Source: Dehalococcoidia bacterium (GTDB taxonomy: Bacteria; Chloroflexota; Dehalococcoidia; DSTF01; JALHUB01). Taken from it: 64,000 bases of DNA. The first letter of the stretch is position 1, and every line of letters begins with the position of its first letter. The notes under the pieces were generated by a model that saw only the letters and a list, made by a program, of their open reading frames with translations, was not told the origin of the DNA and did not search any database. Below are positions 2,847-60,339 of the stretch, in pieces. The translations under genes were made by a program, and so were the position numbers. The stretch is taken from NCBI GenBank assembly GCA_050010555.1, contig JBEKKV010000003.1, positions 16,241-80,240 of the forward strand, read 5' to 3'.

Positions 2847-4196
2847 TCAGCGCGAAGCTCCCTTTCTTCGAGAGGCGGCGATCCCCGCAGCCAACAGCGC
2901 TGCGCCCGCGGCCAGCAGCGCGATGAGGTAGGGTTCGTCGCGGCCAGCGCTTGCCGCCGAGCCGCCGCCCGTATTCGGCGCGGCGACGAGGTTTGAGGAA
3001 GGCTGAGCGCTGGTGGTGGCCGACGGCCCTGGCGTCTCGACGATCGCGTCCGGCGGCATCGAGGGGCCAACGGCACACCCCGCGATATCGATGCCGTCAA
3101 TTCGTTGTCCGTCGGCGAGGGTTACTTGCCTGGAGGCCGGCTGGTAGGGAGGATTGCTGTTGGACGGATCCTGATAGCAGGCGACTTTGAAACGGAGGGT
3201 GTAGGTGCCGGCGGGTAGGTTGTCGAACCGATAGGTGCCGTCATCGCAAAGAGGGGATCCGGGGATGACGTACAACACGCCCACTTCTGGCACGTCTCGG
3301 TAGAGGTCTAGGTAGTCGCCCATGGGGTATTGAGCGCCGGGCGAGCACCAGAGACGTTCTCCGTCATTCCACACGCCATCGTGATTGTCGTCAGAGAAGA
3401 GTCTTCCGCTGATCGTCGATTCTCCACTCAAGAAGTGAAATCCCACCTCGACATTCAGAGTATCCGCTGTGCCCGTCAGGTCGACGGCGTTGGTCGTATC
3501 TTCGGGCGCACCCGGCGTGCCCGGCAGGTCAGGAGTCATGAACGTCTTCTCGTGGAACGTGGCTGCCAAAGAAGACGGCGGAGTCAGCTCAAGGAAGAAG
3601 TGCCCAGGCGGAAGGCCGACGAAATTGAAGCGGCCGGACTGATCGCTTGCCGATGTAATATCGCAGTAGGCCGCCCACAGCCTGTCTTCAGGTCCGCCCT
3701 GCCCATATATCCTTACTTTCCACCCATCAAACCTAGGTTCCCCGGCATCGTCTCGGCCATTCTCATTCTGATCGTTCACAAGGACGCCTGAGACGGTCTT
3801 GGTTCCGCCGTCGAACACGCCAAGGTCAATCCCAGTTGAATCTGTTCCCCTTGGCACGTCGCGGGCGAACGTGGTGGCAGTGGCACAGGGTATCGTACTG
3901 TCCAAGCTCATGCGGACCACGTAATCGACATTGGAAGACGATTGAACGCCCGTGAAGGAGTAGTGACCGTCAGAGTCGGTTCTTGCGTGTTGGACCGGGC
4001 CCCCAAGGAGCTCAACGGTGGCACCCGGAGCTGGCGGTTCACCCAGGTCCCGCTGGCCGTTCAGGTTGAGATCAAAGAACACAGTCCCAGATATGGTGTC
4101 GCCGCCGGCTCCGACCGCCGGACTGACGCCCTTCAGGGCGACAGCCGCGAGCGCGACGGCGACACAGATTCCCAGAAGCACGAGTCTCTTGTGCAT
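2847..4196 (-). CDS. Secreted cell-surface protein with three SdrD-B/Cna-B-like repeats and a C-terminal sortase-like sorting signal
   Basis: Signal peptide 'MHKRLVLLGICVAVALAAVA'. Repeats 'SGTVFFDLNLNGQRDLGEP', 'SGVLVNDQNENGRDDAGEP' and 'SGRLFSDDNHDGVWNDGE'. The C-terminus has 'APNTGGG', an 11-aa spacer, an 18-aa hydrophobic stretch and an 'SRRKGASR' tail. GGAGGT lies 4 nt before the ATG. Confidence 0.6.
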   Translation of the reverse strand: MHKRLVLLGICVAVALAAVALKGVSPAVGAGGDTISGTVFFDLNLNGQRDLGEPPAPGATVELLGGPVQHARTDSDGHYSFTGVQSSSNVDYVVRMSLDSTIPCATATTFARDVPRGTDSTGIDLGVFDGGTKTVSGVLVNDQNENGRDDAGEPRFDGWKVRIYGQGGPEDRLWAAYCDITSASDQSGRFNFVGLPPGHFFLELTPPSSLAATFHEKTFMTPDLPGTPGAPEDTTNAVDLTGTADTLNVEVGFHFLSGESTISGRLFSDDNHDGVWNDGERLWCSPGAQYPMGDYLDLYRDVPEVGVLYVIPGSPLCDDGTYRFDNLPAGTYTLRFKVACYQDPSNSNPPYQPASRQVTLADGQRIDGIDIAGCAVGPSMPPDAIVETPGPSATTSAQPSSNLVAAPNTGGGSAASAGRDEPYLIALLAAGAALLAAGIAASRRKGASR

Positions 4197-6526: not shown

Positions 6527-6608
6527 TCGGCGCGACGAGCAAAGCGAGGCGCGCAACAAGAACGCGATCAGCGCACTCGTCGACAACCGATCGAACATGC
6601 CATGGAAG
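6527..6608 (+). repeat. Intergenic repeat element, copy A (TTCGGCGCGACGAG...GAGCGCAACAAGAACGCGATCAGCG...CATGGAAG)
   Basis: Shares a ~25-nt near-identical core and flanking modules with copies at 20694-20786 and 60245-60339. This copy lacks the short hairpin module. Confidence 0.55.
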
Positions 6609-6654: not shown

Positions 6655-7743
6655 ATGAAGGCAGCCGTCTTCTACGGAGCGAACCAGCCGCTCGCCATCG
6701 AAGAGGTCGATATTGCGTCGCCGAAGAGGGGCGAAGTACTCGTCAAGATCGCCGCTTCCGGACTGTGCCACACGGACCTCCATTTCATGGAAGGCTTCTT
6801 CCCCTGGCCGGCGCCGGCCGTGCTCGGCCACGAAGCCGCCGGCGTCGTCGAACAGGTCGGCGAGGGCGTGAACAGCGTCCAGCCGGGCGACCACGTCGTC
6901 CTCTCGTCCGCGCCTTCGTGCGGCGTCTGCCGCTACTGCGTGGCCGGCAAGCCCTATCTCTGCACCGCCGCCGCCGGATCGCATCAGATGAGGGACGGCA
7001 CCAGCCGCCTGGCCCTCCACGACGACGGCAAGCCCCTATTCCACTTCCTCGGCGTCTCCTCTTTCGCCGAATACGCGGTCGTCTCGGAGCTGGCGATGGC
7101 GAAGGTGCGCGACGATGCTCCGCTGCAAAGCGTTAGCCTCGTCGGCTGCGCCGTCGCGACGGGCGTCGGCGCGGTCCTCTACACGGCGGGCGTCACAGCG
7201 GGCAAGAGCGTCGCTGTTTTCGGCTGCGGCGGCGTCGGGCTGAACGTGGTTCAGGGGGCGAACCTGGTCGGCGCCTGCCCGATCATTGCCATCGACACGA
7301 AAGACGAGAAGCTGGCGCTGGCGAAGCAGTTCGGCGCCACGCACGTCGTGAATCCGGCGAAGGAGCATCCCGTATTGAAGGTCCACGAGATCACCGGCGG
7401 CGGCGCGGACTTCGCCTTCGAAGCCATCGGCGACGTGGACGTGCTCGGCCAGGCGTTCGACTCGCTGGACCGCGGCGGCATGGCGGTCATGGCCGGCGTG
7501 CCGCCTTTCGGCTCGAAGTACGCCGTCGACACAATGAACCTCTTCAACGACAAGACCCTCCGCGGCTGCGTCCTCGGCTCCGTGAACATTCGCCGCGACT
7601 TCCCGATGCTGGTCGACCTGTATATGGCGAAGCGGCTAAAGCTGGACGAACTGATGACGCGGACGTTCCCGCTGGAAGCGATCAACGAGGCGTTCGAGCT
7701 GGTAAAACGGGGAGAGGTGGCGCGCGCCGTCGTGACGTTCTAG
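6655..7743 (+). CDS. Zinc-dependent alcohol dehydrogenase (class III/medium-chain family)
   Basis: 'GLCHTDLH', 'GHEAAGVVEQVGEGV', structural-zinc Cys cluster 'CGVCRYCVAGKPYLC' and a GxGxxG cofactor site. GGGAGGG lies upstream of the ATG. Confidence 0.8.
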   Translation: MKAAVFYGANQPLAIEEVDIASPKRGEVLVKIAASGLCHTDLHFMEGFFPWPAPAVLGHEAAGVVEQVGEGVNSVQPGDHVVLSSAPSCGVCRYCVAGKPYLCTAAAGSHQMRDGTSRLALHDDGKPLFHFLGVSSFAEYAVVSELAMAKVRDDAPLQSVSLVGCAVATGVGAVLYTAGVTAGKSVAVFGCGGVGLNVVQGANLVGACPIIAIDTKDEKLALAKQFGATHVVNPAKEHPVLKVHEITGGGADFAFEAIGDVDVLGQAFDSLDRGGMAVMAGVPPFGSKYAVDTMNLFNDKTLRGCVLGSVNIRRDFPMLVDLYMAKRLKLDELMTRTFPLEAINEAFELVKRGEVARAVVTF

Positions 7744-9567: not shown

Positions 9568-10911
9568 ATGACATTGGAGGGCGGGCCTGAGGGCACGAGC
9601 AGCAACGCGGATAGCGCCGCGAAGCTGTTCGACCTGCATTTCGATCGCGTATACGATTTCTGTCTGCGAACGCTGGGGATGCCGGAAGCGGCGCTGGAAT
9701 CGGCGGAGGAGGCGTTCCGAAAGGCGCTGACACCTTCAGCGCCGGCGCTGGCGACCGCCACGTTTGACGTACGACTATTCTCCGCCGCCCTGGATGCGAT
9801 GGAGCCGCGCCTGAGCCTGCGCCATCCGGGCTCGATTGGGAGCAACCCGCTGTTCCATCAGGTGGACGTCGACCGACTGGGCGACGCCACGCGGGCGTCC
9901 TCGGCGCAGGAGACGGCGGCAGTCATCTGGGAGACGGCGTCGCGGCTGGACCCAGCGGACAGCGTGCTGCTTGACCTGCGCTACCGGCAGAACTTCGCAG
10001 AAGCGGACCTGGCGACGATCTTGAGCACGACCGAGAGCGCGATCAGGTCCAGGCTGTCGAAGCTGGTAAAGAAGATCGAGCCGGAGCTGTCGGCGCTTAT
10101 CGTCGGCAGGCGCGGCAGTCGCAACTGCGACGGGATGCGGCGCGCGATGCTGGGGCTGCCGATTGCGGCGACGCGCGGCCAGGTGAAGAAGGTCGTTGAT
10201 AAGCACACGCGCTCCTGTCCGCTGTGCACGGCGACGCGGATGGGAATGGCATCGCCGCTGGCGGTGCTGGCCGCATTCTCCATCGTCGCGCCTTCGGCCG
10301 GTGAAAGCGACGCGGTGAAGGAACGGCTGATGGCGGCCGCGGCATCGCTGCCCGCGGTAGCGCTGCCGGTCGCGGCGCCGACGCCCAAGCAAACGCCTGT
10401 TGCGACGCCACCACCACCGTCGCCGGTCGCGATGGGCGGAGCGGTAGGAGGAGGCGGGCCGCCGGGGATATTGGTCGGCCTGGCGTCGCTGTGGCGTAAT
10501 CTCTTCGGCGGTTTGAACGTCTCCGGCAACAAAGCACTGCCGATCATGGGCGGGGTGTTCGTGATCCTGGTAGCAATCGGCATAGCGTTCGGCACGGGCG
10601 TGCTGGGCGGCGGAGGCGGCAGCGCAGCGCCGACTCGCACGCCAACGGCGACGAGGACGGTCACTTCGACGCCTTCCCCGAAAGTGACCTCGACGCCAAC
10701 GGAGGAGGCAACGGAAACGCCGGAAGAGGCTACGGCGACGGTCGCGCCGACCGTAACACCGCCCACGGCGACGCCGTCACACGCCGCAAGCGCGACACCG
10801 AGGCCGACACGCACACCGACTGCAACGGCGGAGGCGACGGAGACCCCGACAGAGGCTCCCACGCACACGCCGCTTCCAACGAAGACGCCCACCCCAAATT
10901 CGACGCCCTAG
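9568..10911 (+). CDS. ECF-type RNA polymerase sigma factor fused to a zinc-finger (ZAS-like) anti-sigma domain, TM helices and a Thr/Pro-rich tail
   Basis: Sigma region 2-like ('FDLHFDRVYDFCLRTLG') and region 4-like ('LDLRYRQNFAEADLATILSTTESAIRSRLSKL') segments. These are followed by 'HTRSCPLC', two hydrophobic helices and a low-complexity TPTATxT tail, all in one ORF. GAGGGGG precedes the second ATG at 9568. Confidence 0.6.
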   Translation: MTLEGGPEGTSSNADSAAKLFDLHFDRVYDFCLRTLGMPEAALESAEEAFRKALTPSAPALATATFDVRLFSAALDAMEPRLSLRHPGSIGSNPLFHQVDVDRLGDATRASSAQETAAVIWETASRLDPADSVLLDLRYRQNFAEADLATILSTTESAIRSRLSKLVKKIEPELSALIVGRRGSRNCDGMRRAMLGLPIAATRGQVKKVVDKHTRSCPLCTATRMGMASPLAVLAAFSIVAPSAGESDAVKERLMAAAASLPAVALPVAAPTPKQTPVATPPPPSPVAMGGAVGGGGPPGILVGLASLWRNLFGGLNVSGNKALPIMGGVFVILVAIGIAFGTGVLGGGGGSAAPTRTPTATRTVTSTPSPKVTSTPTEEATETPEEATATVAPTVTPPTATPSHAASATPRPTRTPTATAEATETPTEAPTHTPLPTKTPTPNSTP

Positions 10912-11037
10912 AGCCATCGCTGAGAGGTTTTCAGCTCTCCAGGTTGAACTGCACCCTCTGTTAATGCTGCGTTGACGAACCCCGGCGTGTGTCCCCCTCC
11001 TGACCCCCAAACCGTAGCGTGCTATACTCGTTTAGGC

Positions 11038-12909
11038 ATGTATGTAATTGGCACCGCCGGACACGTCGACCACGGCAAGTCGGTCCTCGTCAGAGCCCTC
11101 ACCGGCATCGACCCCGACCGCCTCCAGGAGGAGAAAGACCGAGGGATGACCATCGACCTCGGCTTCGCCTGGTTGACCCTGCCCAGCGGCCGCGACGTCA
11201 GCATCGTCGATGTGCCTGGGCATGAGCGCTTCATCAGGAACATGCTGGCCGGCGTCGGCGGAATCGACCTCGCCCTGCTGGTCATCGCCGCGGACGAAGG
11301 CGTCATGCCTCAGACGCGCGAGCACCTGGCGATTCTCGACCTCCTGCAACTGAAGAGCGGCATCATCGTCATGACCAAGAAGGACCTGGTTGACGGCGAT
11401 TGGCTCGAAATCGTAGCTGAAGACGTGCGGGAGGCGGTCAAAGGCAGCGTGCTCGAAGGGGCGCCGCTCGTCGCCTGCTCCGCCATCACGCGCGAGGGGC
11501 TCGACGATCTCGTCGCCGTCATCGATCAGAGGCTCGAGGAGACGCCGCCCAAGCGGGACATCGGCCGACCGCGCCTGCCTATCGACCGCGCCTTCACCAT
11601 TGCCGGCTTCGGCACGGTGGTGACAGGAACGCTGATCGACGGCAGCTTCAGCGTTGGGCAGGAAGTGACGGTCGTGCCGGGCGGGTTGCGCGCACGCATC
11701 CGCGGCCTGCAATCGCATCGGCAGAAAGTAGAGCGCGCGTCGCCGGGGACGCGGACGGCGATAAACCTGTCCGGCGTATCGGCGGACGAGCTGCGGCGCG
11801 GTCAGGTAATTGCGCCGCCCGACACTCTGCCGCCCACCACGGCCGTCGACGTGCGATTGCGCGCGATCCGGGCGCTGCGCCGCCCGCTGCGCCATAACGC
11901 CCGCCTTTCCTTTCACAGCGGCGCCAGCGAGGTCTGGGGCAAGCTGCGCCTGCTCGACGGGGATGAGCTGGGGCCCGGCGAAGAAGGCTGGGCGCAGATA
12001 CGTCTCGACGAGCCGGTGGCAGTACTGGCCGGCGATCTCTTCGTCGTGAGGGATGCTAACAACACCCTGGGCGGCGGCCAGGTGGTCGAGGCGCAGGGAC
12101 GGCGGCACCGTCGCCACGACGTCCGCACACTCGACGCGCTTTCGTCGCTCCAAGCGGGTTCGCCCAAGAAAAGGCTCGTCACAATCGTCGAACAGCGGCA
12201 GCCGCTTGAGCAGGAGGCGCTCCTCAAGCAACTCGGCCTGCCCGAGGAGGAAGCACTGAAGCTGCTGGCGCGGCTGGTCGAATCGGGGGAGGTAGTGGCG
12301 CTTGGAGGCGGGCCGGTGGGTGACGGCGCGGCGCTGCTCACCAGAGAAGCGTTCGCGACGCTCGCTACGAAGGCCGACCTATCGATATCACAGTATTACA
12401 AGGACCACCCGCTGCGTCTGACGATGCCGAAGGAAGAGCTGCGGAGTCGCCTCGGGCTGCAATCGCGGGTGTTCAACGCAGCGGTGAAGCGTTGGCAAGA
12501 GGCCGGTCGGCTGACGGAAGCAACGGCCGGCATGGGTCTGCCCGGTCACGAAGTTCAACTTTCGGCCGCGCAGCAGGCGAAGTCGGAGGCGTTCCTTCGC
12601 GACCTCCAGGCGAACCCCTTCGGACCGAAATCGGACGCCTGGCCAGATGAGGAGCTCCTGGCGTACCTGGTCGAAAAGCGGCAGGTTGTGGCGCTGGCGG
12701 AAGGCGTGGCCTTTTCGATGCCGGCTTACCGGGAGATGGTGGAGCGCGTCGTAACGCACCTGCGACAGCACGGCAAGCTGACGCTGGCGGAGGCGCGCGA
12801 CATGTTCGCAACGAGCCGCAAGTACGTGCAGGCGCTGCTCGAGCACCTCGACGCCGAGAAAGTGACGCAGCGCGTTGGCGAGGAGCGCGTGCTGCGACCG
12901 GGACGGTAA
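11038..12909 (+). CDS. selB: Selenocysteine-specific translation elongation factor SelB
   Basis: N-terminal GTPase ('[11 protein letters not shown]', 'DVPGHERF', 'TKKDL') followed by winged-helix C-terminal domains. 623 aa. The start is Met23 of the listed ORF. Confidence 0.8.
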
Positions 12910-20693: not shown

Positions 20694-20786
20694 TTCGGCG
20701 CGACGAGTCCGCCAAAGGCGGAGAAGGAGCGCAACGAGAACGCGATCAGCGTACGACACAACGTCGCCACGAGCGATTCATGGAAG
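20694..20786 (+). repeat. Intergenic repeat element, copy B
   Basis: TTCGGCGCGACGAG + CCGCCaaaGGCGG hairpin + GAGCGCAACGAGAACGCGATCAGCG ... CATGGAAG. It lies between the rplS stop and the def start, on the strand opposite to both genes. Confidence 0.55.
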
Positions 20787-37385: not shown

Positions 37386-38471
37386 GTGACAGCAAGAGAG
37401 GATCTGGACAAGCTTCCCCCGATCAAGGTTATGGGTGTCGGCGGCGGCGGCGGCAACGCGCTGAGCCGGATGATGGCGGAGAACATCCCCGGCGTGCAGT
37501 TGGTGGCCGTGAACACGGACTCGCAGGCGCTCGCGCATACGGACGCGCACGTCAAGATCCGCATCGGCGACCGGCTGACGAAAGGGCTGGGCGTCGGCGG
37601 CGATCCCAACAAGGGCCTGCGCGCCGCCGAGGAAAGCCGTGAGGAGCTCTTCGACGCCGTGAAGGGCGCGGAGATGATCTTCATCACCGCCGGCATGGGC
37701 GGCGGCACGGGCACGGGCGCATCGGCCATCGTCGGCGAAGTGGCGCGCGAGGCCGGGGCGCTGACCATTGGCGTCGTTACCAAGCCGTTCTCCTTCGAAG
37801 GCGCAAAGCGTCGAATGCAGGCGGAGGACGGCATCGAGCACCTGCGGGACAAAGTGGACACGCTAATCGTCATACCAAACGACCGCCTCCTTGCCGTTTG
37901 CACTCCCGACGTGTCCGTTCCCGAGGCCTTCCGCGTTGGCGACGAGGTGCTCAGGCAATCGATTCAGGGTATCTCGGAGATCATCACCGTGCCCGGCGAC
38001 ATCAACCTCGACTTCGCCGACGTGCGCAAGATCATGGGCGAGGCCGGGCAGGCGCTGCTCGCTATCGGGCGGGCCAGCGGCGAGAATCGCGCCATTGAGG
38101 CCGCGCGGGCGGCGATCACGAGTCCCCTGCTCGACACGAGCATCGCGGGCGCGAAGGGCGTGCTGTTCAACATCACCGGCTCGCGCAGCATCGGGCTGCA
38201 CGAGATGAACGCCGCCGCACAGGTAATCGCGGAGGTAGTGGACCCGGACGCGGAGATAATCTTCGGCACGGCCACCGATCCGGACCTGGGCGACGAGATA
38301 AAAGTGACCGTCATCGCCACGGGGTTCCAGCCGGCGCGGATGCTGGAGCAGGGTTTGGAGGAGGCGTTGGGTCGCGAGCACAGGCTGCGGCCGCTGCGGG
38401 TAGAGAACCTGAAGAACGTGGGCGATACGGACCTGCCGACCTTCCTGCGTCGCACCGTCTCGTTGCGGTGA
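37386..38471 (+). CDS. ftsZ: Cell division protein FtsZ
   Basis: Tubulin signature 'GGGTGTGA' and 'IKVMGVGGGGGNA'. GTG start with AAAGGAGG RBS. Confidence 0.95.
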   Translation: MTAREDLDKLPPIKVMGVGGGGGNALSRMMAENIPGVQLVAVNTDSQALAHTDAHVKIRIGDRLTKGLGVGGDPNKGLRAAEESREELFDAVKGAEMIFITAGMGGGTGTGASAIVGEVAREAGALTIGVVTKPFSFEGAKRRMQAEDGIEHLRDKVDTLIVIPNDRLLAVCTPDVSVPEAFRVGDEVLRQSIQGISEIITVPGDINLDFADVRKIMGEAGQALLAIGRASGENRAIEAARAAITSPLLDTSIAGAKGVLFNITGSRSIGLHEMNAAAQVIAEVVDPDAEIIFGTATDPDLGDEIKVTVIATGFQPARMLEQGLEEALGREHRLRPLRVENLKNVGDTDLPTFLRRTVSLR

Positions 38472-38577
38472 GGCGCTAGAGGGAAATACCAAATGAAAGG
38501 AGGGTTCTGTCTAGCCGAGCAACCACGAGCCCCGGCTGATCCGGGATTTTGAAGGTTGCCTCTCGGATGAGGCAATC

Positions 38578-38623
38578 GGTCGCGGTCGGTGATAGGGAGA
38601 TGCGCCGACCGCGACCACTTTTT
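38578..38623 (+). terminator. Rho-independent terminator downstream of ftsZ
   Basis: Perfect 12-bp inverted repeat GGTCGCGGTCGG / CCGACCGCGACC with a 15-nt loop, followed by ACTTTTT. Two smaller hairpins precede it, at about 38531-38550 and 38556-38575. Confidence 0.55.
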
Positions 38624-38715
38624 CGGAGGCAAATGCTTATGTTGAGGCCCCGGCGAATCGGCGTCTTGGGGCGGCGGATTCGGCCCTTCTTGACAGAACA
38701 CGCCACGCAACTTGA

Positions 38716-38761
38716 CCACAATATGTTGGGTTTTGCCCCTTGACAACCTCTATATGTTGTG
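38716..38761 (+). promoter_or_regulatory. Two candidate NrdR boxes (CCACAATATGTTGGG at 38716-38730; ACCTCTATATGTTGTG at 38746-38761) overlapping promoter elements
   Basis: AT-rich partial palindromes in an otherwise GC-rich region. They resemble the NrdR-box consensus acaCwAtATaTwGtgt and are spaced ~30 bp apart. Box 2 sits in the spacer of a TTGACA(38740)-17nt-CAGAAT(38763) promoter. Confidence 0.5.
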
Positions 38762-38774
38762 CCAGAATCCCCCC

Positions 38775-39422
38775 ATGCGATGCCCCTACTGTACTTCTCA
38801 GGACACAAGGGTGATCGACTCGCGGGAGGCCGAAGACGGCATCCGGCGGCGGCGGGAGTGCGCGGCCTGCGGCGAACGCTTCACGACGTACGAGCGTCCG
38901 CTGGCCACCGGCCTGCTCGTCGTCAAGAAGGACGGCCGTCGCGAGGAGTACACGCGCGAGAAGGTGCTGCTGGGCATCCGCAAGGCTTGCGAGAAGCGAC
39001 CGCTGGCAGTGGGGACGCTGGAGGCGGTCGTCGATGAGATAGAGGCGGTGCTCAACGAGCAGGGGCTCGCCGAGGTGTCGAGCCGCGACATCGGCGAGAT
39101 GGTGATGGGGCACCTGCGGCAGTTGGACCAGATAGCCTACATCCGTTTCGCCAGCGTCTACCACGAGTTCGCCGATCTCGACGACCTGCGGGACGAGGTC
39201 GACGCGCTGGAGGCGACGCTGGGGACTGCGGAGGGCACAAGCCAGCCGCCGCTCATCCCGGAAGAGGAGTTGCAAGGCCTGGCCAGGTCACCGGCGTGGC
39301 GGGCCTTTCAGTACGGCAAGGGGGCAAAGACTCGTTATCGGCAGAGGCGGGCCGTCTCGGCGGCCGCCGGCGAGGCGAAAGGAAGCGCCTCGTCGTCCGC
39401 TCGACGGGGCGGCCCAGGTTAA
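38775..39422 (+). CDS. nrdR: Transcriptional repressor NrdR (zinc ribbon plus ATP-cone), with a ~60-aa C-terminal extension
   Basis: 'MRCPYCTSQDTRVIDSRE...RRRECAACGERFTTYER' zinc ribbon and ATP-cone ('VVKKDGRREEYTREKV'). Start is Met22 of the listed ORF. Confidence 0.85.
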   Translation: MRCPYCTSQDTRVIDSREAEDGIRRRRECAACGERFTTYERPLATGLLVVKKDGRREEYTREKVLLGIRKACEKRPLAVGTLEAVVDEIEAVLNEQGLAEVSSRDIGEMVMGHLRQLDQIAYIRFASVYHEFADLDDLRDEVDALEATLGTAEGTSQPPLIPEEELQGLARSPAWRAFQYGKGAKTRYRQRRAVSAAAGEAKGSASSSARRGGPG

Positions 39423-39449
39423 TCAGGCAAAGGAACGCATCTCACGAAG

Positions 39450-39755
39450 ATGGAGTCGGAATACGGTCGTGACTACGGTCGGGTGCTGAACGGCGGCGGC
39501 GAAGTGCTGGCGACGGGCGCGTTCGAGATCAACAAGGAGCGCTGCGAAATCGTCTTCCGGCCCGTCGTCGATAGCAGCCTGCTGGACAGGGAGACCGGCC
39601 CGCTGATCATGGAGTTGGACGACGGCCGCATGCTGGACATCGCCGGCAAGTACCTTCGCTTCCGCCTCCTCGGGCCCGACGGGGACCGCCAGTCAATCTA
39701 CCGCCTCCGTTACGCTGCGGGGCAGGAGGCCCGCGGCACCCCCGTCTCTCACTAG
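39450..39755 (+). CDS. Hypothetical protein (101 aa) between nrdR and nrdJ
   Basis: Strong GC3 bias consistent with real coding. No recognisable domain. Same strand as nrdR and nrdJ, and tightly spaced. Confidence 0.4.
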   Translation: MESEYGRDYGRVLNGGGEVLATGAFEINKERCEIVFRPVVDSSLLDRETGPLIMELDDGRMLDIAGKYLRFRLLGPDGDRQSIYRLRYAAGQEARGTPVSH

Positions 39756-39850
39756 AACACCGGCCAAACAACGCCGACCCGGCCAGAACGGGACGGCGCG
39801 CACGCGCTTTAGACCATTTCGGTCGGATTCCCGGGAAAGGATAAGGGGCC

Positions 39851-42565
<2,715 letters not shown>

Positions 42566-42746
42566 CGTGTTTGGAAGCTGTCGGCGGACTCCCCCGCCAC
42601 CAGCCGCCCGACAGCGATCTAGAAGTGGCGTCCCTGATTCGTCAGGGGCGCCACTCATTATTGGCGCGCGACGGAAATGATAAACTGGATTCGGCAAGAA
42701 TCCGGCATAAAGGACCCTGGGTAGAGGACGACCCGGAGGTGCACCT

Positions 42747-45098
42747 ATGGCGACCAAAGCTCACCCCAACTCCATTGCTCTCTCCGATAACGCCCGCGTG
42801 GTGCTCGAGCGGCGCTACCTGGCGAAAGACGAGCGCGGCCGCACCGTCGAGACGCCGGAGCAGCTATTCCGACGCGTCGCGCACAACATCGCCGGCGCCG
42901 AACAAGCGTACGGCGGCGCGCAACAGGTGGACTTCTGGGAGCAGCGCTTCCTCGACGTGATGACGAGCCTGCGCTTCCTCCCCAACTCGCCGACGCTAGG
43001 CAACGCCGGTCAGCCGCTGCAGCAGCTCGCTGCCTGCTTCGTCCTGCCGGTCGAGGACTCGATGGAAGGCATCTTCGGCGCCATCTGCAACATGGCGGTG
43101 ATCCACAAGAGCGGCGGCGGCACCGGCTTCTCGTTCAGCAGGCTGCGACCGGCTGGCGACATGGTCCGGAGCACGGCGGGCCTCGCGAGCGGTCCGGTGT
43201 CGTTCATGAAGGTCTTCGACGCGGCAACAGAGGCGATCAAGCAGGGCGGCACGCGGCGCGGCGCCAACATGGCGATCCTCAACGTCGAGCACCCGGACGT
43301 CGAAGAGTTCATCCGCGTCAAGTCGGACATGGTGACGCTGACGAACTTCAACATCTCGGTGGGCGTGAACGAGCGGTTCATGGAGGCGGTGGAGCGCGAC
43401 GAAGAGTTCTTGCTCGTCAGCCCGCGCACGCGGAAGCCGGTCGGCAAGCGACGGGCGCGGGCGGTCTTCCGCCTCATGGTGGAGAACGCCTGGCAGAACG
43501 GCGACCCCGGCCTCGTGTTCATCGACCGCGTGAACCGCGACAACCCGACGCCGCGGCTCGGACCCATCGAGGCGACGAACCCGTGCGGCGAGCAGCCGCT
43601 GCTGCCGTACGAGTCGTGCACGCTCGGCTCGATCAACCTCTCGCGATTCGTCAAAGAAGGCGAGCGCGAGGTCGACTGGGAGGCGCTGGCGGCGACGGTG
43701 CCGGTCTGCGTGCGCTTCCTCGACGACGTCATCGACGTGAACCACTACCCGATGCCGGAGATCGCGGCGATGACGCTGAAGACGCGGAAGATCGGCCTCG
43801 GCGTAATGGGCTGGGCCGACCTCCTCTTCCGGCTTCGCACTCCCTACGACTCCGACGAGGCGCTGAAGCTCGGCGAGCAGATGATGGCGTTCATCCAGGA
43901 GAAGGCGGACGCGGCTTCGGCGGAGCTGGCGCAGGCGCGCGGGACGTTCCCGGCGTGGGAGGACAGCGTCTACGCGGCGGGGCGGGAGCGACAGCCGCTG
44001 CGCAACTCGACTCGTACGACGGTGGCGCCGACCGGCACGCTGTCGATAATCGCGGACTGCTCGGGCGGCATCGAGCCGGTGTTTTCGCTGGCGTTCACGC
44101 GTCAGCACTTCCTCGACCCGCACAATCCCAGGACGGCGACGAAGCTGACAGAGGTGAACAAGCACTTCGAGCGCGTCGCCAAAGAGGAAGGCTTCTATTC
44201 GAAAAGGCTGATCGATGCGCTCGCGGCAGGCGCCAGCCTCCGCGACCAGCCGAAGGCGCCGGAATGGGCAAAAGGCGTCTTCGTGTCGGCGCACGACGTC
44301 GCGCCGGAGTGGCACGTGCGGATGCAGGCGGCGTTCCAGCGCCACACGGACAACGCCGTGAGCAAGACGATCAACTTCCGTCAGGAGGCGACGCCGGACG
44401 ACGTGGAGCGCGCATACCTGCTGGCTTACCACGAGGGCTGCAAGGGGGTCACGATCTATCGCGACGGGTCGCGGGAAATGCAGGTGCTGTCCCACACGAC
44501 GGCGAGGGGCCCCGAGCAGCAGGAGGCGATAGCCGCGGAGCGGTCGCTCGGAGCGGGCCCGCCGTCGCTGCGTCCGGGCGAGCCGTACCGACGCCGCCTG
44601 CCGGACCAGAGGGCGTCGCTGACGCACAAGTTCCAGGTCGGCGACCAGGAGGGATACCTCACAGTCGGCCTGTACGACGACGGCAACCCGGGCGAGGTGT
44701 TCGTCACCATCTCGAAAGAGGGGTCGACGATCCGCGGGCTGATGGACTCGGTAGCGGTGCTGACGTCGCTGGCGCTGCAGTACGGCGTGCCGCTGGAGGA
44801 CCTGGCGCGCAAGTTCGAAGGGACGCGCTTTGAGCCGTACGGGTTCACGAACAACCCGGAACTGCGTCAGGCCACGTCGCTGGTCGACTACATCTTTCGC
44901 TGGCTGGAGGTGCGCTTCGGCGAGGGGAAGAAGGAGCCGCCCGCAACCGGGCCGTCGCGCGGCCGCAAGAAGGGGGAGCCTCTGCCGGCGAGCGGGGACA
45001 TCAGCACGGGGGTGGCGTGTCCGGACTGCGGGTCGCTACTCGTATTCGCCGAGGGCTGCCTGGCGTGCCGCTCCTGCGGCTACGAGCGCTGCGCGTAA
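42747..45098 (+). CDS. nrdJ: Adenosylcobalamin-dependent ribonucleotide reductase (class II, NrdJ), paralog 2
   Basis: 783 aa. 'NSPTLGNAGQP', 'ACFVLPVEDSMEGIF', 'GGGTGFSFSRLRP' and 'NPCGEQ' resemble Thermotoga-type NrdJ. C-terminal 'CPDCGS...CLACRSCG' zinc ribbon. Confidence 0.85.
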   Translation: MATKAHPNSIALSDNARVVLERRYLAKDERGRTVETPEQLFRRVAHNIAGAEQAYGGAQQVDFWEQRFLDVMTSLRFLPNSPTLGNAGQPLQQLAACFVLPVEDSMEGIFGAICNMAVIHKSGGGTGFSFSRLRPAGDMVRSTAGLASGPVSFMKVFDAATEAIKQGGTRRGANMAILNVEHPDVEEFIRVKSDMVTLTNFNISVGVNERFMEAVERDEEFLLVSPRTRKPVGKRRARAVFRLMVENAWQNGDPGLVFIDRVNRDNPTPRLGPIEATNPCGEQPLLPYESCTLGSINLSRFVKEGEREVDWEALAATVPVCVRFLDDVIDVNHYPMPEIAAMTLKTRKIGLGVMGWADLLFRLRTPYDSDEALKLGEQMMAFIQEKADAASAELAQARGTFPAWEDSVYAAGRERQPLRNSTRTTVAPTGTLSIIADCSGGIEPVFSLAFTRQHFLDPHNPRTATKLTEVNKHFERVAKEEGFYSKRLIDALAAGASLRDQPKAPEWAKGVFVSAHDVAPEWHVRMQAAFQRHTDNAVSKTINFRQEATPDDVERAYLLAYHEGCKGVTIYRDGSREMQVLSHTTARGPEQQEAIAAERSLGAGPPSLRPGEPYRRRLPDQRASLTHKFQVGDQEGYLTVGLYDDGNPGEVFVTISKEGSTIRGLMDSVAVLTSLALQYGVPLEDLARKFEGTRFEPYGFTNNPELRQATSLVDYIFRWLEVRFGEGKKEPPATGPSRGRKKGEPLPASGDISTGVACPDCGSLLVFAEGCLACRSCGYERCA

Positions 45099-45106
45099 CG
45101 AATAGC

Positions 45107-45808
45107 ATGCCAACATCGAACGCAGGGACCAGCGCCATCGCCGCGAATCTGCGATGGGTTCGCGACCGCGTAGACGCCGCCTGCCGGCGCGCCGGACGCT
45201 CGCCCGCAGACGTCACTATCGTCGGCGTCAGCAAGGGCTTCCCCGTCGAGGCCGTCGTCGCAGCGTGGCAGGCCGGGCTGCGCGATGTCGGCGAGAACCG
45301 CGTCCAGGAAGCCGCCGCGAAGCTCCCTGCGGCGATGGCACAAGGAGCCGCGTTCCGTCGCCACCTCGTCGGCCACCTTCAGACCAACAAGGTAAAGACC
45401 GCAATCGACCTGTTTGATATAATCCAGTCAGTGGATTCGCTCCGCCTGGCGGAGGCCATCAGCAGCACAGCCGGCAAGTCAATAAGCGTCCTGCTGGAGG
45501 TGAACGTCGCGGCTGAAGAGTCGAAGTACGGCCTGAAGCCGGACGAAGTGCCGCAGGCACTGGAGCGCATTCGCTCTCTGCCGAACATCGACGTAGTAGG
45601 GCTGATGACGGTCGCGCCGGCGGCGTCCGATGCAGAGCAGGTGCGACCGGTCTTCCGGCGGCTGCGGGAGATGGCGGAGTCGCTTGGCGTGCCGGAGCTA
45701 TCGATGGGCATGAGCGACGACTTCGAGGTCGCGGTGGAAGAGGGCGCGACGATGATAAGGATCGGACGCGCTATCTTTGGGCCACGGCCCGAGCGGAGTG
45801 AAGAATGA
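45107..45808 (+). CDS. yggS: YggS-family pyridoxal-phosphate homeostasis protein
   Basis: 'VTIVGVSKGFPVEAV', 'GENRVQE' and 'HLVGHLQTNKVK'. This is the alanine-racemase-fold single-domain PLP protein. Confidence 0.8.
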   Translation: MPTSNAGTSAIAANLRWVRDRVDAACRRAGRSPADVTIVGVSKGFPVEAVVAAWQAGLRDVGENRVQEAAAKLPAAMAQGAAFRRHLVGHLQTNKVKTAIDLFDIIQSVDSLRLAEAISSTAGKSISVLLEVNVAAEESKYGLKPDEVPQALERIRSLPNIDVVGLMTVAPAASDAEQVRPVFRRLREMAESLGVPELSMGMSDDFEVAVEEGATMIRIGRAIFGPRPERSEE

Positions 45809-46605
45809 AGGTCGGATTCATAGGCGGCGGCAAGATGGCAGAGGCGCTCATCGGCGCCCTGCTCGTCAACGGCGTCTCCTCGCCGGAGGAGCTGGCCGTC
45901 GGCGAGCCGCTGCCCGCCCGCCGCCAGACGCTGGCCGAGCAGTACCACGTCCAGGTCTCCGCCGACAACCGCAAGGCGCTGGCGGGCGCGGAGCTCGTCG
46001 TCGCCGCCGTCAAGCCGAACCAGTTCAGCGCCGTCGCCGCGAATCTGCAGGGACAGCTTCAGGCGGACCAGACGGCCGTCTCCATCATGGCCGGAATCAC
46101 TCTGAAGAGCCTGCGCGAAAGCCTTCGCCACGAGCGAGTCGTGCGGGTGATGCCGAACCCGCCGGCGCAGATCGGCGAAGGGATGAGCGTCTGGACGGCG
46201 ACACGTGAGGTCGACGAGGAGGCACGGCAGAAGGTGCGGCGGCTTCTCCAGGCGGCGGGCAAGGAGCTCTACGTCGAAGAGGAGCGCTTCATCGACATGG
46301 CGACGGCCGTGTCGGGCAGCGGCGCCGGCTTCGTCTTCCTGTTCATCGAAGCGTTCATCGACGGCGCCGTGCACATCGGCGTCCCGCGCGACATGGCGCG
46401 CGAGCTGGTGGTCCAGACGTTCGCGGGCTCAGCGGCGCTGGTGGACCGCTCCGGCAAGACGCCCGGCGACCTGCGGGCAATGACGACGACGCCCGGCGGC
46501 ACCACTGCCGAGGGGCTGCTAGTACTGGAAGAGGCGGGAATCCGCGCCGCCGTAACGGAAGCACTTATTGCGGCCTTCGAGAAGTCGAAGGCCCTGGGAG
46601 GTTGA
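45805..46605 (+). CDS. proC: Pyrroline-5-carboxylate reductase
   Basis: 'MKVGFIGGGKMAEALIGALL' NAD(P)-binding start and a P5CR C-terminal dimerisation domain ('TTPGGTTAEGL'). Confidence 0.85.
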   Translation: MKVGFIGGGKMAEALIGALLVNGVSSPEELAVGEPLPARRQTLAEQYHVQVSADNRKALAGAELVVAAVKPNQFSAVAANLQGQLQADQTAVSIMAGITLKSLRESLRHERVVRVMPNPPAQIGEGMSVWTATREVDEEARQKVRRLLQAAGKELYVEEERFIDMATAVSGSGAGFVFLFIEAFIDGAVHIGVPRDMARELVVQTFAGSAALVDRSGKTPGDLRAMTTTPGGTTAEGLLVLEEAGIRAAVTEALIAAFEKSKALGG

Positions 46606-46612
46606 GCAATCC

Positions 46613-46867
46613 ATGCTCTTTGTCAAGTTCGTCCAGGTATTCACGGACATCATGATCGCGGCGATATTCATCCGCGCCATCATGTCATGGGTGACCAACG
46701 ATCCGCGCAACCCGCTGATCTCGGCACTCGATCAGATAACGGAACCGATCCTGGGGCCGTTGCGTCGCATAATGCCGAGAATGGGCATGTTCGACTTCAC
46801 GCCGATGGTCGCCATCTTCATCCTCTTCGCCATCCAGACCATCGTCACGAACGCTTATTCGGGATAG
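46613..46867 (+). CDS. yggT: YggT-family membrane protein
   Basis: 84-aa two-TM protein. 'IFIRAIMSWV' and 'LDQITEPILGPLRRI'. GGGAGG lies upstream of the ATG (Met16 of the listed ORF). Confidence 0.7.
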   Translation: MLFVKFVQVFTDIMIAAIFIRAIMSWVTNDPRNPLISALDQITEPILGPLRRIMPRMGMFDFTPMVAIFILFAIQTIVTNAYSG

Positions 46868-55474: not shown

Positions 55475-55574
55475 CGTTTCTCCACCTTGATCAACTTCTG
55501 TTGGGATTATACATCGGGGGGAAGCGAGGTTCAATGAAGGCAGCGATTGCGGCCGACGGAATGGACGGATCGAG

Positions 55575-55650
55575 GGTGCGCCCGGCGGGATTCGAACCCA
55601 CGGCCTGTCGCCCGAGGCGACCGCTCTATCCGACCGGAGGGGACCCAGCC
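55575..55650 (-). pseudogene. Degenerate tRNA-like remnant sharing an exact 32-nt 3' end with the adjacent Arg-like tRNA
   Basis: 55575-55606 is identical to 55692-55723, covering the CC discriminator, acceptor 3' strand, T-arm and start of the variable loop. The upstream part keeps a D-loop-like GGATAGAGC, but the anticodon loop is only 5 nt and there is no matching 5' acceptor strand. Confidence 0.4.
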
Positions 55651-55690
55651 GCGCCGGGGCACGGGTCTCTGTCGCTAAGCTATCGGTCGA

Positions 55691-55767
55691 TGGTGCGCCC
55701 GGCGGGATTCGAACCCACGGCCTCAGCCTCCGCAGGGCTGCGCTCTATCCAGCTGAGCTACGAGCGC
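55691..55767 (-). tRNA. tRNA-Arg-like; the anticodon reads GCG, which is atypical
   Basis: Complete cloverleaf with 7-bp acceptor, D-arm GCTC/GAGC, anticodon stem CAGCC/GGCTG with loop CUGCGGA, T-arm GTGGG-TTCGAAT-CCCGC and encoded CCA. The body closely resembles bacterial tRNA-Arg. Confidence 0.7.
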
Positions 55768-55821
55768 CCCAATCAACTTTCGGGCTACGGACGGTCCGGC
55801 CCGGCTAGATTCGCTCTTCAA

Positions 55822-55907
55822 TGGTGCCGAAGGTGGGATTTGAACCCACACGCCCTTACGGACACTACGCCCTGAACGTAGCGCGTCTGCCATTCCGCCA
55901 CTTCGGC
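55822..55907 (-). tRNA. tRNA-Leu (anticodon CAG)
   Basis: 86 nt with a long variable arm. Anticodon stem CTACG/CGTAG with loop UUCAGGG. T-loop TTCAAAT. CCA encoded. Confidence 0.9.
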
Positions 55908-55917
55908 AAGGCCTGCA

Positions 55918-55994
55918 TGGTGGGCGGTACAGGGCTCGAACCTGTGACCTCTTCCGTGTGAAGGAAGCGCTCGTACCAACTGAGCTAACCGCCC
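55918..55994 (-). tRNA. tRNA-Val (anticodon CAC)
   Basis: 77 nt. Acceptor GGGCGGT/ACCGCCC. Anticodon stem CTTCC/GGAAG with loop UUCACAC. T-loop TTCGAGC. CCA encoded. Confidence 0.9.
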
Positions 55995-56095
55995 GCTCCC
56001 GTTCACGATTCTATCCAACGAGGAGAGGGCCTGTCAACCGAAAAACCTCGATGACGAGGTTTGGCCGACGAAGGATCCGATTTGGCCTGCGTCGC

Positions 56096-57310
56096 CTAAG
56101 ACGGGGCCGGCTGCGTCGCCTGGTAGTCGCGCCAGCGCTCCTCCAGGCGCGGGTCCTTCAGCGTCGCGAGAAGGTAATCTGTAAACTCAGAGCCCTTGAC
56201 GCCGGTCGGGCGGCCGGTGACGACCATCTTCTTCTCGAACGTATCGCAGATTTCGAGGGCCATCTCCAGACGGCGGCCGCGGTCGGCGTAACCGATGTGA
56301 TTGAGGAGCATAGCGCCGGCGCGGATGAGCCCGCTGGGGTCGGCGTATTCCACACGCCCCTCTTCGACCATGCGGGGCGCGCTGCCATGAATCGCCTCGA
56401 ACATCGCGTAGTGGCGGCCGATGTTGGCGCTGCCGGCCGTGCCGACGCCACCCTGGAGCTCGGCGGCCTCGTCCGTCAGAATGTCGCCGTAGAGATTGGG
56501 CAGGACGACGACGCGGAAGTGGGAGCGACGCTTGGGGTCGACGAGCTTGGCCGGGATTATGTCAATATACCAGTCGTCCCACTCGATTTCGGGATAATTG
56601 GCGGCGATGCTCCTGGCCGTCTCCAGGAACTTGCCGTCGGTGGTCTTGATGACGTTGGCCTTGGTGACGACGGTGACCCGCTTCTTGTCATGCTTCCGGG
56701 CGTAGTCGAAGGCCATCTCGATGATGCGCTCACTGCCCTGGCTGGTGACCGCCGTGAAGTCGAACGCGAGGTCTTCGGTGACGTGGATGCCGCGGCTACC
56801 CATGACGTACGCGCCTTCGGTGTTCTCGCGGAAGAACGTCCAGTCGATTCCTTGCGCCGGAATCTTGACCGGGCGGACGTTAGCGAAGAGGTCGAGGGCG
56901 CGGCGCATGGCGACGTTGGCGCTCTCGATGTTGGGCCAGGGATCGCCGGCGCGAGGGGTCGTCGTCGGCGCCTTGAGGATGACGTGGCACTGCTTGAGCT
57001 CGTCGAGCACGTCGTCAGGGATGGCCTTGAGCTGGGCCGCGCGGTTCTCGATGGTGAGGCCGTCGATTGTCTTGAAGACGATGTCGCCGCGCTCCACCTC
57101 GGGCGCAAGGATGTACTCGAGGACGCGCTGCGATTCGCGTGAGATGTAGGGTCCAATGCCGTCGCCACCGCAGACGCCGATGACGAGCGGTCGGAGCGAG
57201 GAGTAGTCGGCCCAGCCGTTGTCGGCCTTCATGCGGTCGACGCGCGTCAGTTGCTCTTCGACAAGGGCTCCGAAGTGCTGTTTTGCTCGTTCGACGGCTT
57301 CTCTATCCAT
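56096..57310 (-). CDS. Isocitrate dehydrogenase-family enzyme (IDH/IMDH superfamily; prokaryotic NADP-IDH-like)
   Basis: 'NLYGDILTDEAAELQGGVGTAGSANIG' substrate/metal-binding signature and 'KAPTTTP...ANVAMRRALDLFANVRPV', similar to E. coli-type Icd. 404 aa. Exact specificity not resolved. Confidence 0.65.
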   Translation of the reverse strand: MDREAVERAKQHFGALVEEQLTRVDRMKADNGWADYSSLRPLVIGVCGGDGIGPYISRESQRVLEYILAPEVERGDIVFKTIDGLTIENRAAQLKAIPDDVLDELKQCHVILKAPTTTPRAGDPWPNIESANVAMRRALDLFANVRPVKIPAQGIDWTFFRENTEGAYVMGSRGIHVTEDLAFDFTAVTSQGSERIIEMAFDYARKHDKKRVTVVTKANVIKTTDGKFLETARSIAANYPEIEWDDWYIDIIPAKLVDPKRRSHFRVVVLPNLYGDILTDEAAELQGGVGTAGSANIGRHYAMFEAIHGSAPRMVEEGRVEYADPSGLIRAGAMLLNHIGYADRGRRLEMALEICDTFEKKMVVTGRPTGVKGSEFTDYLLATLKDPRLEERWRDYQATQPAPS

Positions 57311-57317
57311 ATGTCCC

Positions 57318-57572
57318 CTATGCCTGATCCAGCCTAGATTTCAACCACTCCCGGCCTTTGCCGGTCTTGAGAAAGCGCTCCCTAGCGTGCGCTTCGGACT
57401 CGGAGTCGTACGACTCCTGATAGATTACTTCGAAAGGCCTATTGCCGGAAGACCAGGCCCCTCTGTGCCCTCGATTGTGCTCCGCAAGGCGTTCACTTAC
57501 TGATCTAGAAGTAAATCCGACGTAGTGTTTCTCGTTGCGGAGACTTCGCAAGATATAGACAGCAAAAGGCAT
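57318..57572 (-). CDS. GIY-YIG nuclease-superfamily protein (UPF0213/YhbQ-like)
   Basis: 'VYILRSLRNEKHYVGFTSRSVSERLAEHN' GIY-YIG core. 84 aa. GGGAAGG RBS. Confidence 0.8.
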   Translation of the reverse strand: MPFAVYILRSLRNEKHYVGFTSRSVSERLAEHNRGHRGAWSSGNRPFEVIYQESYDSESEAHARERFLKTGKGREWLKSRLDQA

Positions 57573-57684
57573 CGGCCTTCCCGCGGGATTTGAATCCGCC
57601 AGAGGCTGACAGGCTCCCCGACCAAAGGCTGGCGCCAGGTCGCCTTTGGCGACAGGCCCCTGCCCGCCACCGCATCGATACCAC
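57573..57684 (-). other. Structured, inverted-repeat-rich intergenic segment between tRNA-Met and the GIY-YIG gene (tRNA-like fragment or 5'-leader)
   Basis: Contains GTCGCC-nnn-GGCGAC and GCCAG...CTGGC inverted repeats. It also has a T-arm-like GGCGGATTCAAATCCCGC with a UUCAAAU loop, but no complete cloverleaf can be drawn. Confidence 0.25.
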
Positions 57685-57760
57685 TGGTGGCAGCGGAGGG
57701 ATTTGAACCCCCGACCAAGGGCTTATGAGTCCCCTGCTCTACCGACTGAGCTACGCTGCC
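57685..57760 (-). tRNA. tRNA-Met (anticodon CAT); elongator-type G1-C72, could alternatively be tRNA-Ile2 (lysidine)
   Basis: 76 nt. Anticodon loop CUCAUAA. T-arm GGGGG-TTCAAAT-CCCTC. CCA encoded. Confidence 0.85.
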
Positions 57761-60244: not shown

Positions 60245-60339
60245 TTCGGCGCGACGAGCCCGCCTCGGGCGGACGAGGAGCGCAACAAGAACGCGACCAT
60301 CGCACACCCCACTGCCGTTGCGAAGGCGACATGAAAAGT
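60245..60339 (+). repeat. Intergenic repeat element, copy C, with a further partial 5' module at 60372-60398
   Basis: TTCGGCGCGACGAG + CCGCCtcgGGCGG hairpin + GAGCGCAACAAGAACGCGACCATCGCAC ... CATGAAAAG. Downstream, TCGGCGCGAGGCttcGCCTCGCGC repeats the 5' module as a perfect 9-bp hairpin. Confidence 0.55.

Follow-up and report, generated by a model that had tools for sequence, protein, structure and literature searches.

Two adjacent class II ribonucleotide reductase genes in a Dehalococcoidia genome: a predicted NrdR operator upstream of nrdR and the first, and a candidate promoter of its own before the second

In a metagenome-assembled genome of a Dehalococcoidia bacterium (Chloroflexota), two genes for class II, adenosylcobalamin (AdoCbl)-dependent ribonucleotide reductases (RNRs), nrdJ1 and nrdJ2, follow one another downstream of the repressor gene nrdR and of a small open reading frame (ORF), orf101. 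We surveyed the RNR genes and NrdR sites within a 64-kb stretch of this genome, hereafter called the window, and compared it with related loci, which are given L-numbers below. The genes probably form two transcription units, the first repressed by NrdR and the second independent of it, a reading in which we place moderate confidence. The first unit would start at a sigma-70-like promoter lying under a canonical pair of NrdR boxes, encode NrdR, orf101 and NrdJ1, and end at a double hairpin directly after nrdJ1. The second would start at an extended -10 promoter, TGATAAACT, carry no NrdR box, and continue from nrdJ2 into yggS-proC-yggT. The original prediction had placed the four ORFs correctly, all on the plus strand, and the peptide strings that it quoted were found. 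The features on which the argument rests are the following.

38716..38731, plus strand: NrdR box 1, CCACAATATGTTGGGT, matching 6/6 key positions.
38740..38768, plus strand: sigma-70-like promoter, TTGACA-17-CAGAAT with TG before the -10, assigned purely by consensus match (10/12 positions).
38747..38762, plus strand: NrdR box 2, CCTCTATATGTTGTGC, matching 6/6 key positions, with a 15-bp linker to box 1.
38775..39422, plus strand: nrdR, 215 aa, Zn-ribbon and ATP-cone repressor.
39450..39755, plus strand: orf101, 101 aa, small all-beta protein of an uncharacterised Chloroflexota family.
39851..42565, plus strand: nrdJ1, 904 aa, class II (AdoCbl) RNR of the NF005122 type.
42577..42615, plus strand: hairpin A, with the C-rich loop CCCCGCCACCAG at 42592-42603; 4/9 pairs show compensatory changes.
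42624..42655, plus strand: hairpin B, terminator-like, with a GC-rich stem of 14 bp, a TTCG loop and CATTATTGG behind it; the putative end of the nrdR-nrdJ1 unit.
42678..42686, plus strand: candidate extended -10 element, TGATAAACT, 61 nt before the nrdJ2 start codon.
42747..45098, plus strand: nrdJ2, 783 aa, class II (AdoCbl) RNR of the NF006417 type, Thermotoga-like.

The repressor matches the Zn-ribbon family PF22811 (1e-19) and the ATP-cone family PF03477 (2e-18), and scores 181.4 bits on TIGR00244 (cut-off 124.65). It carries the CxxC motifs CPYC (residue 3) and CAAC (residue 29) and has, within MRCPYCTSQDTRVIDSREAEDGIRRRRE, all of D15, R17 and RRRR (R24-R27), residues that serve DNA binding in Streptomyces coelicolor NrdR (PMC9110341). 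Past the ATP-cone it continues into a low-complexity tail of ~65 aa rich in Arg, Ala and Ser (39225-39422); variation of such C-terminal tails is already known. NrdR operators consist of two 16-bp partially palindromic boxes with C4, A6, A8, T9, T11 and G13, separated by a linker of 15-16 bp and overlapping the promoter (PMC13584703). The boxes at 38716-38731 and 38747-38762 have this form, overlap the TTGACA-17-CAGAAT promoter in front of nrdR, and are the sole such pair in the window; even with up to three mismatches allowed, the window yields no other NrdR box. Neither a scan that allowed up to 3 mismatches nor a pair scan of the six key positions detected NrdR boxes before nrdJ1 or nrdJ2. 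In the nine related loci that yielded a full 6+6 box pair, it likewise lies upstream of nrdR and never before nrdJ1 or nrdJ2, with linkers of 14, 15 or 26 bp; the pair upstream of nrdR in L214 is 6+5. The claim that NrdR boxes occur only upstream of nrdR is thus borne out by the window and by its relatives.

This arrangement has a known counterpart in S. coelicolor nrdRJ, an NrdR-autoregulated class II RNR operon (PMC9110341). In both systems nrdR stands directly upstream of the gene for an NrdJ of ~900-960 aa that belongs to the same NCBIfam type, two NrdR boxes spaced by a 15-bp linker overlap the promoter before nrdR, and NrdR has D15, R17 and RRRR. The window differs in that orf101 separates nrdR from nrdJ, that another nrdJ, from a different lineage, comes behind them, that the unit lies directly after ftsZ in the division and cell wall (dcw) cluster, and that co-transcription is, here, predicted. 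By analogy, NrdR would repress the nrdR-orf101-nrdJ1 promoter: a tetramer loaded with dATP and ATP would bind the boxes and switch the first unit off when deoxyribonucleoside triphosphates (dNTPs) are plentiful. Co-transcription of nrdR through nrdJ1 is suggested by spacers of 27 nt (nrdR-orf101) and 95 nt (orf101-nrdJ1), by the conserved gene order, and by a scan of the window that found no promoter-like element before orf101 or nrdJ1 comparable to that before nrdJ2.

The 181-nt spacer between nrdJ1 and nrdJ2 looks different. It folds better than shuffled sequences (z = -4.3), and hairpins A and B are present in every close relative and in eleven further metagenomic contigs of the same gene context. 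Over 14 distinct hairpin sequences, 93.5% of alignment cells are paired, against at most 57% in slid controls, and 7 pairs are compensatory. The hairpins also occur in the distant loci L212 and L213, where the base of stem B is altered on both sides and loop A is unchanged. On the two-unit reading, transcription from the NrdR-controlled promoter would terminate at hairpin B. Downstream of the hairpins lies TGATAAACT. The pattern TGnTAnnnT is found in 18/18 loci at ~0-100 nt before the estimated start of nrdJ2, in nrdJ1-nrdJ2 spacers of 184 to 2112 nt; in 17 of the 18, nrdJ1 itself, 2.7 kb of coding sequence, is free of it. In the window, six of the nine occurrences of the narrower pattern TGnTA.[AG].T lie just upstream of ORFs on the same strand. 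Transcription may accordingly initiate at TGATAAACT. The original prediction, which saw no promoter or box before either nrdJ, thus holds for the boxes and for nrdJ1 and gives way for nrdJ2, whose candidate promoter element is conserved in all 18 loci.

Comparison with relatives also separates the two elements physically. The spacer is a hot spot for insertions, which reach 2.1 kb; where extra ORFs or insertions occur, the hairpins keep their place behind the upstream genes and the -10 element keeps its place before nrdJ2. The two nrdJ genes are parted by a minus-strand gene in L090 (RDD family) and in L214 (a fucosidase), and by three genes in L089. At L007, positions 3173-3320 hold a ~150-bp insertion between hairpin B and the nrdJ2 promoter element that resembles a miniature inverted-repeat transposable element and is bounded by the perfect inverted repeat GGGGAGGACTTTAGTCCTCCC ... 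GGGAGGACTAAAGTCCTCCCC; in L207 the spacing from hairpin B to the element is 244 nt, the same as in L007.

Several observations weigh against two units. TGnTA.[AG].T is not enriched in the window overall (9 found versus 7.8 expected), so that only its placement, and not its frequency, carries information; TGATAAACT has no convincing -35 element, and the promoter consensus applied may not be that of Chloroflexota. The search pattern that brought in nine of the 14 hairpin sequences prescribed loop A and the 5' base of hairpin B, so that in those nine the invariance of these parts is partly built in. Finally, the tail of hairpin B, CATTATTG, has only 4 T in 8 bases, which is why a strict terminator scan missed it, and varies among relatives. 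Since there is no clear U-tract, some transcripts from the NrdR-controlled promoter may escape termination and read through, which would place nrdJ2 partly under NrdR.

The alternative is the single operon under one repressor of the original prediction, nrdR-orf101-nrdJ1-nrdJ2, transcribed from the NrdR-controlled promoter; transcription would also run on into yggS. The hairpins would then serve to stabilise or process the mRNA, or act as a leaky attenuator by which the NrdJ1:NrdJ2 ratio is set, and TGATAAACT would be a minor internal promoter at most. The common strand of all genes and their short spacers (27, 95 and 181 nt) are in keeping with such an operon, as is the weak tail of hairpin B. 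Moreover, RNR genes in NrdR-carrying genomes usually have an NrdR box (PMC9110341), and the lack of one before nrdJ2 would be explained by read-through. Against it stand the -10 element, which tracks nrdJ2 in all 18 loci whatever the length of the spacer, the opposite-strand genes in L090 and L214, the tolerance of the spacer for long insertions, and the conservation of the hairpins, with covariation, at the end of the upstream unit. We therefore regard the single operon as unlikely, though it retains appreciable weight, and prefer two transcription units.

Some further features of the hairpins are recorded here. Loop A, CCCCGCCACCAG, is nearly invariant among relatives whose NrdJ2 is 62-66% identical, and is more conserved than its own stem; it is conceivable that it serves as a protein- or Rho-binding site. 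An antiterminator, in which loop A (CGCCAC) would pair with the 5' arm of hairpin B (GTGGCG), was considered and is weakened by L212 and L213, where stem B reads GAGGCG/CGCCTC, compensated within itself, and loop A is still CGCCAC. Nothing suggests that the hairpins are repeated across the genome: in the window the loop motif has one other occurrence, by chance within a coding region (23211), the base of stem B is unique to each locus, and no relevant direct repeats were found. A metagenome scan for the hairpin motif gave 119 matches, 11 with nrdJ context, and the others were set aside as chance hits of a GC-rich 20-mer with a variable gap. Rfam returned only four tRNAs in the window at gathering thresholds, none at this locus, and nothing relevant on 38450-45200 at E <= 1; neither scan supports a riboswitch or other known RNA in the spacers.

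The second unit probably extends beyond nrdJ2. Directly upstream of nrdR lie ftsQ-ftsA-ftsZ of the dcw cluster, and nrdJ2 is followed by yggS-proC-yggT and recA; the three gene calls, made in L001 (offset 29449), are:

45107-45808, plus strand: yggS.
45805-46605, plus strand: proC.
46613-46867, plus strand: yggT.

Only 8 nt separate the nrdJ2 stop from the yggS start (45098-45107), and proC and yggS overlap by 4 nt (45805-45808). In the genome of the window nrdJ2 would therefore head a unit with the division-cluster genes ylmE/yggS-proC-yggT, and this spacing suggests that nrdJ2-yggS-proC-yggT are co-transcribed; in relatives the nrdJ2-yggS gap is 260-1000 nt. Because it carries no NrdR box, this unit would provide an NrdR-independent supply of dNTPs, tied to a neighbourhood of cell-division genes.

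The order nrdR-orf-nrdJ1 followed by nrdJ2 is kept in relatives with NrdJ2 proteins 62-92% identical to that of the window and, judged by this gene order, the paired arrangement is old and stable. Other loci have one part alone: nrdR-orf-nrdJ1 occurs without a nearby nrdJ2 in L008, L009, L059 and L211, and in L091 an NrdJ2-type gene stands on its own elsewhere. At L211 (7983-12899), nrdR-orf-orf-nrdJ1 is followed directly by yggS-proC-yggT, with no nrdJ2, and nrdJ2 must therefore have been inserted into, or lost from, the exact nrdJ1-yggS junction in the history of the clade. All of the closest relatives of NrdJ2 come from Chloroflexota, and NrdJ1-type proteins are found at ~60% identity in many phyla. 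Several relatives have, after nrdJ1 and before the hairpins, a gene for a small, highly basic, histone-like repeat protein with AKKKPAAKK or ARKSxARKT repeats (L008 10776-11010, L009 ~10837-11190, L212 ~10792-11205, L006 10882-11016), which does not occur in the window.

As originally predicted, two distinct and intact class II RNR lineages stand beside nrdR, the second Thermotoga-like, and both end in a Cys-rich tail. NrdJ1 scores 1406 bits on the equivalog model NF005122/PRK06556 (cut-off 859), NrdJ2 1031 bits on NF006417/PRK08665 (cut-off 961), and both match the RNR barrel PF02867 (8e-140 and 2e-130, respectively), with 33% identity to each other. The best match of NrdJ2 in the PDB is Thermotoga maritima NrdJ (E 3e-125), a dimeric nucleoside diphosphate (NDP) reductase (PDB 1XJE/1XJK) with which it aligns over the whole barrel and shares the PNSP loop. 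That enzyme is much more distant from NrdJ1 (E 9e-59), for which the closest entry is 7B9P (E 5e-183), which carries extra segments in the alignment; a literature search on 7B9P and 7B9Q found nothing.

The catalytic residues C162, N366, C368, E370 and C379 of NrdJ1 and C97, N278, C280, E282 and C291 of NrdJ2 align with C134, N320, C322, E324 and C333 of T. maritima NrdJ, and loop 2 is kept in both. Each protein ends, downstream of a TSCPD domain, in a Cys-rich domain (CRD) with six Cys, CxxC-x9-CxxCxxC-x5-C at 878-903 in NrdJ1 and the same pattern with a last spacing of x4 at 758-782 in NrdJ2. Domains of this kind are found in most non-monomeric NrdJ (PMC5704485), and the spacing in NrdJ1 is exactly that of Cys-920/923/933/936/939/945 in Stackebrandtia nassauensis NrdJd (Loderer et al. 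2017, PMC5704485). In Frankia and some Alphaproteobacteria only one of the two NrdJd carries a CRD (PMC5704485), in contrast to the window, where both do, with predicted zinc binding. Measured against L006, a 96%-identical relative, the ratio of nonsynonymous to synonymous substitution rates (dN/dS) is 0.07 in NrdJ1 and 0.12 in NrdJ2; against the more distant L087 and L088 it is 0.19-0.23 for the two. Both genes are under purifying selection. The idea that one paralog is a decaying or non-catalytic copy, raised with the original prediction as its possible undoing, therefore fails: the Cys triad, Asn, Glu, loop 2 and CRD are all in place, both proteins exceed their equivalog cut-offs, dN/dS is low, and both genes are retained over a wide clade. 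We consider a pseudo-enzyme scarcely credible, and membership of these families suggests that both proteins bind and use AdoCbl.

The two enzymes had been described as monomeric, a description that does not survive comparison with the family models. On the dimer-type model TIGR02504, NrdJ1 and NrdJ2 score 578 and 722 bits (cut-off 400), and on TIGR02505, the model of the monomeric ribonucleoside triphosphate reductase RTPR (NrdJm, L. leichmannii type), only 28.6 and 80.9 bits (cut-off 340); structure 1L1L is no more than a marginal match for NrdJ2 (E 1e-4). By these scores, both belong to the dimeric NrdJd kind. Phosphate specificity is set by the apical loop, which reads (P/F)-N-S-P in diphosphate reductases, Phe at position 1 being accepted, and P-[AS]-G-R in triphosphate reductases (PMC8365446). 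NrdJ1 has FNSP at 143-146 and NrdJ2 PNSP at 79-82, and neither has P-[AS]-G-R, so both are predicted to be diphosphate reductases, and the phosphate level of the substrate does not separate them.

This bears on why the pair is kept. More than one NrdJ occurs in 1108 of 24,059 GTDB representative genomes, 760 of them with mixed specificity and 235 with diphosphate types only (Schell et al. 2021, PMC8365446). Two NrdJ in one genome are consequently less unusual than the original prediction had it, and the pair in the window falls in the diphosphate-only minority, its members adjacent and differing in the presence of an NrdR site. For most multi-NrdJ genomes it has been proposed that one enzyme reduces NDPs and the other nucleoside triphosphates (NTPs), and 69% of such genomes do combine predicted NDP and NTP types (PMC8365446). 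Here that explanation, and with it the earlier suggestion of different substrates if this is read as NDP versus NTP, is already contradicted by the loops, and we hold it to be very improbable. Sub-functionalisation by regulation rather than by substrate is plausible, and there may be a physiological division of labour between NrdJ1 and NrdJ2.

The remaining gene of the first unit, orf101, has no match in Pfam or NCBIfam; its dN/dS of 0.22-0.40 and conserved start indicate that it is a real gene. Its family comprises 186 proteins among 5.8e9 and 33 clusters among 1.84e9 representatives, all unnamed and, where a taxon is named, all from Chloroflexota. In 12/12 lineages (the window clade and eleven others, among them four whose members are only ~30% identical) orf101 lies between nrdR and an NrdJ1-type gene; in eleven of the twelve it follows nrdR directly, the exception being L009, and in L211-L214 the stop codon of nrdR touches or overlaps the start of orf101. 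It was absent from ~70 NrdJ1 loci of other phyla. Homologues in relatives are located as follows.

L008: 6768-7151.
L009: ~6890-7282.
L059: 7303-7602.
L090: 3427-3801.
L211-L214: 7001-74xx.

The AlphaFold2 model of orf101 is a small beta-barrel with a mean predicted local distance difference test score (pLDDT) of 80.7, and a Foldseek search with it gave no match at E <= 1e-3. E18 and Y84 are invariant in the family, no Cys is conserved, and in many members a disordered linker leads into a short, basic terminal tail of the form P-x-x-R. Assignments that we tried and rejected include PilZ (no Pfam match, and RxxxR and (D/N)xSxxG are not conserved) and a flavin-binding or redox protein (no motifs, no conserved Cys, no significant Foldseek match); motifs, Pfam and Foldseek alike lend no support to a likeness with PilZ or split beta-barrel folds. 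Nor does a further small ORF recur between orf101 and nrdJ1: of the additional ORFs seen in L008, L009, L059, L211 and L212, only those of L008 and L009 are homologous to each other.

The strict position of orf101 between nrdR and nrdJ1 suggests that it partners one of them, and gene order thus points to a role with NrdR or with NrdJ1. It might act on NrdR as a modulator, or fill the place of the missing partner or reductant adaptor of CRD-type NrdJd, whose physiological electron donor is unknown (PMC5704485). The double hairpin, for its part, could act through its loop CCCCGCCACCAG as a regulated terminator or as a site bound by a protein or by Rho, and would then set the read-through into nrdJ2. 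That both should hold together, orf101 as a dedicated component of the NrdR/NrdJ1 system and the hairpin as a regulated element, is a doubtful proposition, offered as speculation.

Elsewhere in the window, a stretch of ~92 nt is repeated at 20694-20785 and 60245-60336 with 73% identity, with a shorter third copy at 6545-6576; it is probably a conserved segment of paralogous genes. The four tRNA genes called by Rfam form a cluster on the minus strand at 55570-57760, and a fifth tRNA-like 3' end, which Rfam did not call, turned up among the direct repeats at 55570-55606.

It is a recognised puzzle why some bacteria maintain more than one oxygen-independent, B12-dependent RNR, and the published answer is a split between NDP and NTP specificity. 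With the diphosphate motif in both enzymes, that answer cannot hold here. The locus, which is conserved across a wide clade of Dehalococcoidia, offers an alternative that can be tested: two enzymes of the same chemistry that are controlled differently, by NrdR boxes in one case and by a promoter of its own in the other. New are the conserved hairpin element, orf101, and the adjacency of paralogs with the same predicted specificity and apparently different control; an nrdRJ arrangement and a CRD had been described before, and the advance for the RNR field is incremental rather than surprising. The orf101 family is a candidate new component of RNR systems. If the reading of orf101 and the hairpin were true, these bacteria would have a built-in division of labour, with one RNR under feedback control and the other constitutive.

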